From the NCBI RefSeq assembly GCF_049060185.1, contig NZ_JBMEQO010000002.1: 64,000 nt of DNA. The stretch is one strand, 5' to 3'. The notes beneath the pieces were generated by a model, which made no database searches, was not told the DNA's origin, and worked only from the letters and a program-made list of their open reading frames with translations. This document shows positions 19,175-20,580 of this stretch, in pieces; position 1 is the stretch's first letter; each line of letters starts with the position of its first letter. The DNA is from Nannocystis pusilla. GTDB lineage: Bacteria > Myxococcota_A > Polyangia > Nannocystales > Nannocystaceae. A program made the translations under genes and the position numbers.

Positions 19175-20580
<1,406 letters not shown>

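Follow-up and report, generated by a model that had tools for sequence, protein, structure and literature searches.

In the 64,000-nucleotide stretch of Nannocystis pusilla DNA analysed here (contig NZ_JBMEQO010000002.1 of RefSeq assembly GCF_049060185.1; hereafter the window), a gene at positions 19175–20580 of the plus strand encodes a sigma-54-dependent response regulator, and its receiver domain contains a short bipartite palindrome that recurs elsewhere in the window. Pfam resolves the regulator into a receiver (PF00072, residues 10–120) followed by Sigma54_activat (PF00158), AAA_lid_14 (PF25601) and HTH_8 (PF02954), which together make up the complete NtrC-family architecture of receiver, AAA+ and Fis-type helix-turn-helix domains. 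Orthologues are annotated as sigma-54-dependent regulators; in the window the gene is split by homopolymer deletions at around 19970, 20114 and 20536. The 18-mer ACATGTCCGTTCGGACAG spans 19266–19283 (+), and its 14-bp core TGTCCGTTCGGACA (TGTCC-GTTC-GGACA), conserved across 7 core Nannocystis genomes, spans 19269–19282. In the frame set by the ATG at 19175, positions 19262–19285 form eight codons, GAG AAC ATG TCC GTT CGG ACA GCC, encoding E30–A37. The last seven of these (19265–19285, +) spell N31-M-S-V-R-T-A37, as a first-pass annotation of the sequence had read them. Judged by the canonical receiver fold, N31–A37 would occupy the α1–β2 loop and strand β2.

The same annotation held that the unit forces rare codons into a conserved receiver domain, at a place where related regulators read E-G-Y-E-V-R-T-A; the description needs adjustment in its details. 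Orthologues outside Nannocystis carry E-G-[LMFY]-x-V-x-[TV]-A in common codons, and the quoted peptide is an approximation to forms such as E-G-F-E-V-R-T-A in L019 (L numbers designate the loci compared). With the codon usage of 15 window open reading frames (ORFs) of high third-position GC content (GC3) and strong GC3 periodicity as reference (7,277 codons), GTT accounts for 0.2% of valines and ACA for 2.2% of threonines, so that both are indeed rare; TCC (14% of Ser) and CGG (23% of Arg) are less so. Only ACA is forced by the core, with TCC and CGG merely favoured. The very rare GTT (19274–19276) falls in the unconstrained N4 spacer and is therefore not explained by the core motif; it is kept in 7 of 8 core Nannocystis sequences, N. 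exedens (L003) having GTG. Given the residues M-S-x-R-T, ordinary codon choice would yield the core with a probability of 8 × 10−4. The domain is otherwise conserved, but the site itself is not: residues 31–36 have a mean column entropy of 1.58 bits compared with 0.64 bits for the whole receiver domain, so that only one other six-residue stretch of the domain varies more. The invariant V34 and A37 are untouched.

The regulator copy belongs to a family of sites. The motif TGTCCNNNNGGACA (TGTCC-N4-GGACA) occurs exactly 18 times in the window where dinucleotide shuffles predict 0.06, an excess of about 300-fold, and 48 times at up to one mismatch (1.83 expected), corresponding to one copy per 3.5 kb and per 1.3 kb, respectively. 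Seven control palindromes of the same composition and geometry have close to no copies. The enriched unit is the N4 inverted pair and not a single asymmetric word. The most over-represented k-mers of the window are half-site words (GGACATGT, GGGACAG and others), with half-sites at 2.1 per kb against 0.5–1.9 per kb in motif-free relatives, an enrichment of only about 1.5- to 2.5-fold for a single half-site. All 18 TGTCC…GGACA pairs found at gaps of 2–8 have exactly N4, no N4 pair occurs in 287 kb of outgroup loci and just 4 copies of the contiguous decamer GGACATGTCC are present. Half-site spacings peak at 4, 18 and 32 in inverted, 0 and 14 in everted and 9 and 37 in direct orientation. The 48 sites yield the extended consensus RCM-TGTCC-BNNV-GGACA-KGY, and the regulator 18-mer fits its general form, RCM-TGTCC-N4-GGACA-KGY. 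Among the 30 one-mismatch variants, 18 differ at arm position 3 (hand count), followed by position 5, while C4 almost never and G2 never changes; the ratio of exact to one-mismatch sites is 18:30, where chance predicts about 1:30. Around half of the copies fall where GC3 periodicity is of the coding type, including the receiver domain and genes for an RDD protein, an alpha/beta hydrolase, GspD and other proteins, and around half where such periodicity is lacking. A scan of the whole window with the Rfam 15 covariance models gave 0 matches at the gathering score.

Several lines of evidence suggest that the pressure on these sites acts on DNA and not on the peptide, as the first-pass annotation had proposed. 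First, when synonymous codons were shuffled within the window ORFs, leaving out the repetitive ORF at 42076–46962, 0.087 exact copies were expected and 7 were present (about 80-fold), with 21 against 1.8 at up to one mismatch; including that ORF, the exact figures are 15 against 0.19. The expectation drops another five-fold when codon order is shuffled, which indicates that protein sequences have been shaped as well. Second, the frame bias that had been put forward as a check is pronounced: copies in clear coding regions use the three frames in the ratio 12:12:1. Twelve are read in frame 2 (xTG TCC nnn nGG ACA, encoding [M/L]-S-x-[R/G]-T), twelve in frame 3 (xxT GTC Cnn nnG GAC A, V-[P/L]-x-D) and one in the TGT CCn frame. 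Third, across an aligned 21 kb, A- or T-ending third positions in motif arms are conserved in 23 of 24 comparisons, a figure that rests on 4 codons including the ACA at 19280–19282, against 61% of comparisons (156 codons) outside the motif. Fourth, the finding that the first-pass annotation had named as a refutation, motif-free orthologues with the same residues in the same rare codons, did not materialize: such relatives use common codons for the shared residues (M-S-V-x-T-A; ATG TCG GTG CTC ACC GCG in L025 and ATG AGT GTC GTC ACC in L022). Finally, at many orthologous sites the arms persist and the spacer changes.

Among the loci compared, the motif is enriched in Nannocystis and its close relatives only. 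Aligned over 21 kb, the window has 97.2% identity with Nannocystis sp. RBIL2 and 96.4% with N. pusilla Na p29; the repaired regulator protein shares 100% amino-acid identity with that of N. punicea, 99% with those of Nannocystis sp. RBIL2, N. exedens and N. bainbridge, and 98% with those of N. pusilla and N. radixulma. Exact copies occur at 0.09–0.33 per kb in the orthologous 21-kb loci of core Nannocystis and at 0.14–0.23 per kb in the Nannocystis metagenome-assembled genomes (MAGs) L007 and L008, with 1–2 copies per locus in the related MAGs L011, L013 and L017. They are absent from 22 of the 23 remaining Nannocystaceae-type loci (L006–L040), and 40 more distant loci contain one isolated copy (L048); density is near zero in the loci of Paraliomyxa, Haliangium, Anaeromyxobacter and Archangium. 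A metagenome scan with one extended form of the motif returned mostly isolated matches along with several motif-dense, high-GC contigs at unrelated loci (L163, at 1.9 copies per kb, L193, L108, L194 and L101), some with 14-bp and 21-bp arrays. The motif is therefore dispersed in the lineage and not confined to the regulator locus; a protein of L193 has Nannocystis sp. as its closest named relative, at 74% identity. In viral contigs, a scan for ACATGTCC-N4-GGACATGT found 8 isolated matches, on contigs without further motif enrichment. Contig L163 (metagenome Ga0075163, 75% GC) carries 20 copies in 10 kb, which suggests that the family is denser still in uncultured relatives; a run of its copies at 4434–4740 is spaced mostly at 21 bp or multiples (TGTCCGCGGGGACAGGTGAGC), and 8320–8375 is a 14-bp lattice array.

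The history of the regulator copy can be followed in living species. When 80 orthologues are aligned by codon, no indel appears at the site, and the states differ by substitutions alone, from which it follows that the unit was built in place and not inserted; of the two origins that had been envisaged, insertion and conversion in place, only the second survives. The Nannocystis MAGs L007–L010 read AAC ATG CAC GTG CGG ATC, with 4 mismatches to the core. L005, L004 and L006 read AAC ATG GCC GTT CGG ACA, with 1 mismatch (Ala). The crown sequences L001, L003, the window, L002 and L021 read AAC ATG TCC GTT CGG ACA (GTG for GTT in L003), with none (Ser). On the tree (L005,(L004,(L001,(L003,(window,L002,L021))))), in which L006, a 4-kb MAG contig, was not placed, the two basal lineages have TGGCC where the crown has TGTCC, so that core mismatches fall from 4 to 1 to 0 along Nannocystis. 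The route to the motif includes the replacements G→N, L→M, x→S and I/V→T, several of the changes being non-synonymous, and fixation of the rare codon ACA; the last step, Ala to Ser (GCC to TCC), completed the palindrome. Two more specific origins were considered and set aside: a mobile, MITE-like unit would have changed the length of the gene, which the alignment excludes, and a single clustered conversion event is unsupported, given a long outgroup branch (0.33 substitutions per site) and an intermediate state preserved in basal lineages.

The same comparison bears on the most mundane account, in which a coincidence of peptide and codon drift, or an assembly error, produced the unit. The window assembly does contain many homopolymer deletions. 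Independent genomes also have the motif, however, which is why we regard it as untouched by these errors: four further independent genomes have the crown sequence, and another three depart from it at a single base. Together with the low probability of the core given its peptide and the 80-fold excess over synonymous shuffles, this makes chance or artefact extremely improbable.

Outside genes, the motif is built into larger structures. Spacings between CATG tetranucleotides across the window peak at 14, 28, 42 and 56 bp, reflecting a lattice in which GRRCATGYYC decamers follow one another with 4 bp between them, at a period of 14 bp; TGTCC-N4-GGACA is the junction of two such decamers. Arrays of 3–6 lattice units occur in regions without coding periodicity and form stems of 16–17 bp with z-scores of −6 to −8. 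One at 52896–52950, GAACATGTCC TCGA GAGCATGCCC TCGA GGACATGTTC …, has a 17-bp stem (z = −6.3); among the arrays at 41908–42066, one forms a 16-bp hairpin (z = −7.4); six units at a 14-bp period lie at 56467–56550 and a degenerate array with a 14/28-bp period at 3090–3170. Strand calls from GC1 and GC2 periodicity were too noisy to sort the extragenic copies into promoter-side and terminator-side positions.

These arrays invite comparison with bacterial REP, BIME and REPIN elements, which they resemble in forming extragenic clusters of hairpins, some beside ORF ends, with turnover of copy number among strains and compensatory stem changes. By an account modelled on those elements, the extragenic hairpins would be primary, recognized as single-stranded DNA or RNA by a RAYT-type transposase or acting as 3′-end stabilizers or terminators, and the intragenic cores would be by-products. 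In keeping with this, non-coding and ambiguous copies covary at positions −1/+14 and have loops that avoid complementarity, flanks change in a compensatory manner between species at window position 14453, several arrays adjoin ORF ends, and presence/absence polymorphism and tandem amplification occur. REPs, however, are 20–40 nt long, RAYT-linked and by definition confined to extragenic space, whereas here the core is 14 bp, around half of the copies are in coding-type regions and the regulator copy arose in conserved coding sequence without a change of length. In coding sequence the core amounts to a 5-bp stem, non-significant at the regulator copy (z = −1.36), and one-mismatch variants mostly disrupt its central pairs. 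A GTAG-type head sequence is lacking, Rfam is without a match, and no RAYT gene was seen, although none was looked for. We consider this account rather unlikely. A reading of the spacer as a UUCG or GNRA tetraloop was also tried and rejected, the GTTC spacer of the regulator copy fitting neither.

The explanation we favour, and think probable without being secure, is that the unit in the regulator is an in-frame copy of a bipartite palindrome that is specific to the Nannocystis lineage and iterated across its genomes. The core would be recognized in duplex form by a symmetric, sequence-specific homodimer that binds or modifies DNA, as suggested by the 5-N4-5 geometry, by the lack of constraint on the spacer, by half-site flanks that degenerate independently of each other in coding copies and by the pattern of mismatches. 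In coding copies, complementarity at positions −1/+14 is found 10 times where 12.4 is expected (the regulator copy has A and G), and the concentration of mismatches at arm position 3 is the opposite of what selection for stem stability would produce and resembles base-specific protein contacts. The density of sites would be kept up by selection for binding sites or by a modification or repair bias, alternatives that these data cannot separate and that are equally debated for the HIP1 palindrome of cyanobacteria. Extragenic copies would additionally have been built into 14-bp lattices with long hairpins, some at gene ends, where they may act as 3′ hairpins. The copy in the regulator is probably a tolerated passenger of this genome-wide process, without a function specific to the regulator.

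The closest analogue of the Nannocystis motif is cyanobacterial HIP1 with its alternates. HIP1 and the alternate HIPs (GCGATCGC) are short, GC-rich, lineage-specific palindromes, 15- to 300-fold over-represented within and between ORFs, kept at orthologous positions and independent of peptide and codon usage (PMC5861425), and their persistence has been attributed either to selection, through nucleoid structure, or to methylation-dependent repair drive (PMC5861425, PMC4390886). The Nannocystis motif is likewise lineage-specific, in about 300-fold excess, and found in coding and intergenic sequence beyond what peptide or codon usage predicts. On conservation at orthologous positions the observations are mixed: the regulator copy and several others persist across 7 species, their arms retained and their spacers changing, but in the small sample arms do no better than coding flanks. 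The motif differs from the contiguous HIP1 octamer in being bipartite (5-N4-5) with a free 4-bp spacer, in occurring in another phylum (Myxococcota) and in a genome of 70% GC, and in having extragenic copies on a 14-bp lattice with long hairpins and tandem arrays. We know of no report of such lattices, hairpins and arrays for HIP1.

A further parallel concerns DNA methylation. HIP-type palindromes are expected to have an orphan methyltransferase that is cognate to the whole word or to its core (Elhai 2015). In the window, 350 bp separate the regulator from an upstream orphan N6/N4 DNA methyltransferase gene with a DPPY motif (17254–18831), which has no restriction partner in its vicinity; as a counterpart to the HIP enzyme it is a candidate partner only. 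The gene is syntenic in core Nannocystis and in L007–L009, L011–L013, L017 and L038, and among the Nannocystaceae-type loci (L001–L040) exact motif copies occur solely where it is present, an association that is confounded with phylogeny. Comparison of its methyltransferase domain with PDB, NCBIfam and PADLOC gave weak, generic type II methyltransferase matches and no clue to specificity. Whether a HIP-like system operates in Nannocystis and its close relatives, with the bipartite palindrome actively written and kept on its 14-bp lattice at thousands of positions by a dedicated trans-acting reader, is in our judgement evenly balanced. Such a reader would be either a DNA-binding dimer or a system of methylation and repair in which the syntenic orphan methyltransferase may take part, and its pressure would be strong enough to override codon bias and replace amino acids inside conserved domains.

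Mutational drive could account for the sites by itself. In a process like that of Elhai's HIP model, methyltransferase-linked short-patch mismatch repair would turn near-cognate sites into the palindrome wherever they occur, and the regulator copy would be a neutral or slightly deleterious product of the bias, unselected. The stepwise point changes toward the motif, amino-acid replacements and rare codon included, are as such a process would leave them, as are multi-base convergence elsewhere (GGC TCG at window position 16153 against GGG ACA in L001, L003 and L005) and the high ratio of exact to one-mismatch sites relative to chance. The upstream methyltransferase and its co-occurrence with exact copies point in the same direction, and HIP itself supplies a precedent (PMC4390886). 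The enzyme is a putative partner only, however, its link to the motif being subject to the phylogenetic confounding noted above, and no Vsr-like gene turned up, although none was sought. Repair bias alone also leaves the 14-bp lattice arrays and long extragenic hairpins unexplained, and for HIP1 orthologous conservation has been argued to favour selection over replenishment (PMC5861425). On balance we think it unlikely that drive is the whole explanation.

Uptake sequences offer another comparison. The DUS of Neisseria and USS of Pasteurellaceae occur genome-wide at about 1 copy per kb, with many copies in coding sequence, where particular frames and weakly conserved parts of proteins are preferred; inverted pairs downstream of genes also serve as hairpins, and the asymmetric single words are read by the competence machinery. 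The Nannocystis motif shares the frame bias and, in the regulator, the placement in a variable stretch. It differs in that its unit is a strictly spaced inverted pair whose half-site alone is only modestly enriched.

The geometry of the motif also recalls transcription-factor operators. The 5-N4-5 layout is that of FNR-type operators, and CTGT-N8-ACAG fits the form of the Escherichia coli LexA box; like operators of the FNR/CRP family or of LexA, the Nannocystis motif has strict spacing, a free spacer and symmetric half-sites. This likeness, with conservation of the site in all core Nannocystis, is what speaks for an element specific to the regulator gene, such as an internal operator or an mRNA hairpin tuning translation or stability. 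At one copy per 3.5 kb, or 1.3 kb with a mismatch, the motif is far too dense for a specific regulon, its abundance exceeding that of any regulon by orders of magnitude, and most copies lie outside promoter positions. An arm mismatch in L004 and L005, and a hairpin that is non-significant, also count against gene-specific function, which we regard as very improbable. A NifA-type upstream activating sequence (TGT-N10-ACA) was considered separately and rejected, the spacing of the motif being TGT-N8-ACA.

Several observations weigh against the duplex-read, genome-wide palindrome that we favour. Extragenic and ambiguous copies covary at −1/+14 (44 of 67, 31.4 expected), spacer complementarity is depleted as it would be in a loop, and the extragenic stems are long and very stable; covariation and stable hairpins together suggest that, outside genes at least, the decisive property may be single-strand structure. 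In the limited 21-kb alignment, conservation of the arms exceeds that of the spacers by no more than about two-fold and does not surpass that of coding flanks, with substitution rates of about 11% in arms, 22% in spacers and 9% in distant flanks (4–10 ungapped sites per species). At the regulator, the GTT codon is left over, and five changes in 14 bp are unremarkable in themselves on an outgroup branch of 0.33 substitutions per site. The protein that would read the duplex is postulated. The genome-wide status of the motif is extrapolated from limited loci: the 64 kb of the window, nine more stretches of the orthologous locus (21 kb each) and a small number of metagenome contigs.

Saturation of a genome with one short palindrome, as by HIP1, has been an open problem for around thirty years and has been studied almost only in cyanobacteria. 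Searches of the literature for Nannocystis palindromes, myxobacterial REP elements, HIP in myxobacteria and the motif string found no description, and the Nannocystis phenomenon, of the iterated-palindrome kind, appears to be undescribed. If our reading is right, it would be an independent origin of such a phenomenon outside cyanobacteria, in a lineage with cultured strains, and would allow comparative tests between selection for chromosome organization and methylation-linked repair drive. Its phylogenetic onset is clear, from absence at the orthologous loci of other Myxococcota, through sparse copies in the loci of related uncultured lineages, to dense copies in core Nannocystis. The regulator copy is a worked example with ancestral, intermediate and final states all in living species, and it shows that pressure on the DNA can replace residues of a conserved signalling domain and bring a 2% codon to fixation there. 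The motif skews analyses of codon usage and of selection in these genomes. It is also a candidate handle for genetic tools, by analogy with HIP1, whose sites are reported in a 2024 bioRxiv preprint to raise transformation efficiency in Synechococcus.

Individual copies elsewhere in the window occupy diverse settings. At 5010–5023 the spacer of an exact copy holds the TGA stop (5016–5018) of the ORF at 4119–5015, so that the palindrome spans the gene end, and at 9162–9175 an exact copy near the 3′ end of a minus-strand ORF (9097–10614) reads V-L-K-D in frame 3. Three copies with long hairpins at 14376–14466 lie between two ORFs read as convergent by GC3 periodicity only; their arms are retained while spacers and flanks turn over among species. 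The exact copy at 29454–29467 keeps its arms in 6 species, with TCCA, CGGC or TCGC as spacer, and the one at 47604–47617, in an RDD-family protein gene, reads L-S-G-R-T in frame 2. A further exact copy (18593–18606) lies in the C-terminal tail of the methyltransferase ORF. This tail (18560–18900; seen also in L001 and L003) consists of hypervariable tandem repeats with units of about 70–85 bp, most of which bear a copy or near-copy of the motif, and repeat number varies between species; in L001 the repeat motif translates as N-V-S-P-R-T-A, resembling the N-M-S-V-R-T-A of the regulator.

The surroundings of the regulator suggest possible regulatory relationships. About 130 bp upstream of its start is a perfect palindrome of a different sequence, TTGCCA-TTT-TGGCAA (19036–19050), which is kept in every core Nannocystis locus and may serve as an operator or promoter element, either for the regulator or for the type II secretion operon. 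A type II secretion cluster (20590–28661) follows the regulator, with a GspC-like PDZ protein, the GspD secretin and further ORFs, those after GspD being presumably GspE and GspF; the regulator may control this operon. Compared with close Nannocystis relatives, the window has, besides the three deletions in the regulator, 1–2-base deletions at about 30 further positions between 10614 and 30157, mostly in homopolymer runs; together these split the regulator, the GspC-like gene and others into shifted ORFs. Their pattern looks like long-read assembly error rather than pseudogenization.

A cluster of 8 exact copies lies at 45780–46871, in the low-complexity N-terminal part of an ORF for a HEAT-repeat protein; several of them read P-V-P-x-D in the local coding frame. 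In the same ORF, 45055–45233 is an 84-bp (2 × 42 bp) tandem repeat with one-mismatch variants of the motif, and the same two variants recur at 84/96-bp spacing in the metagenome contig L183 (6557–7055).

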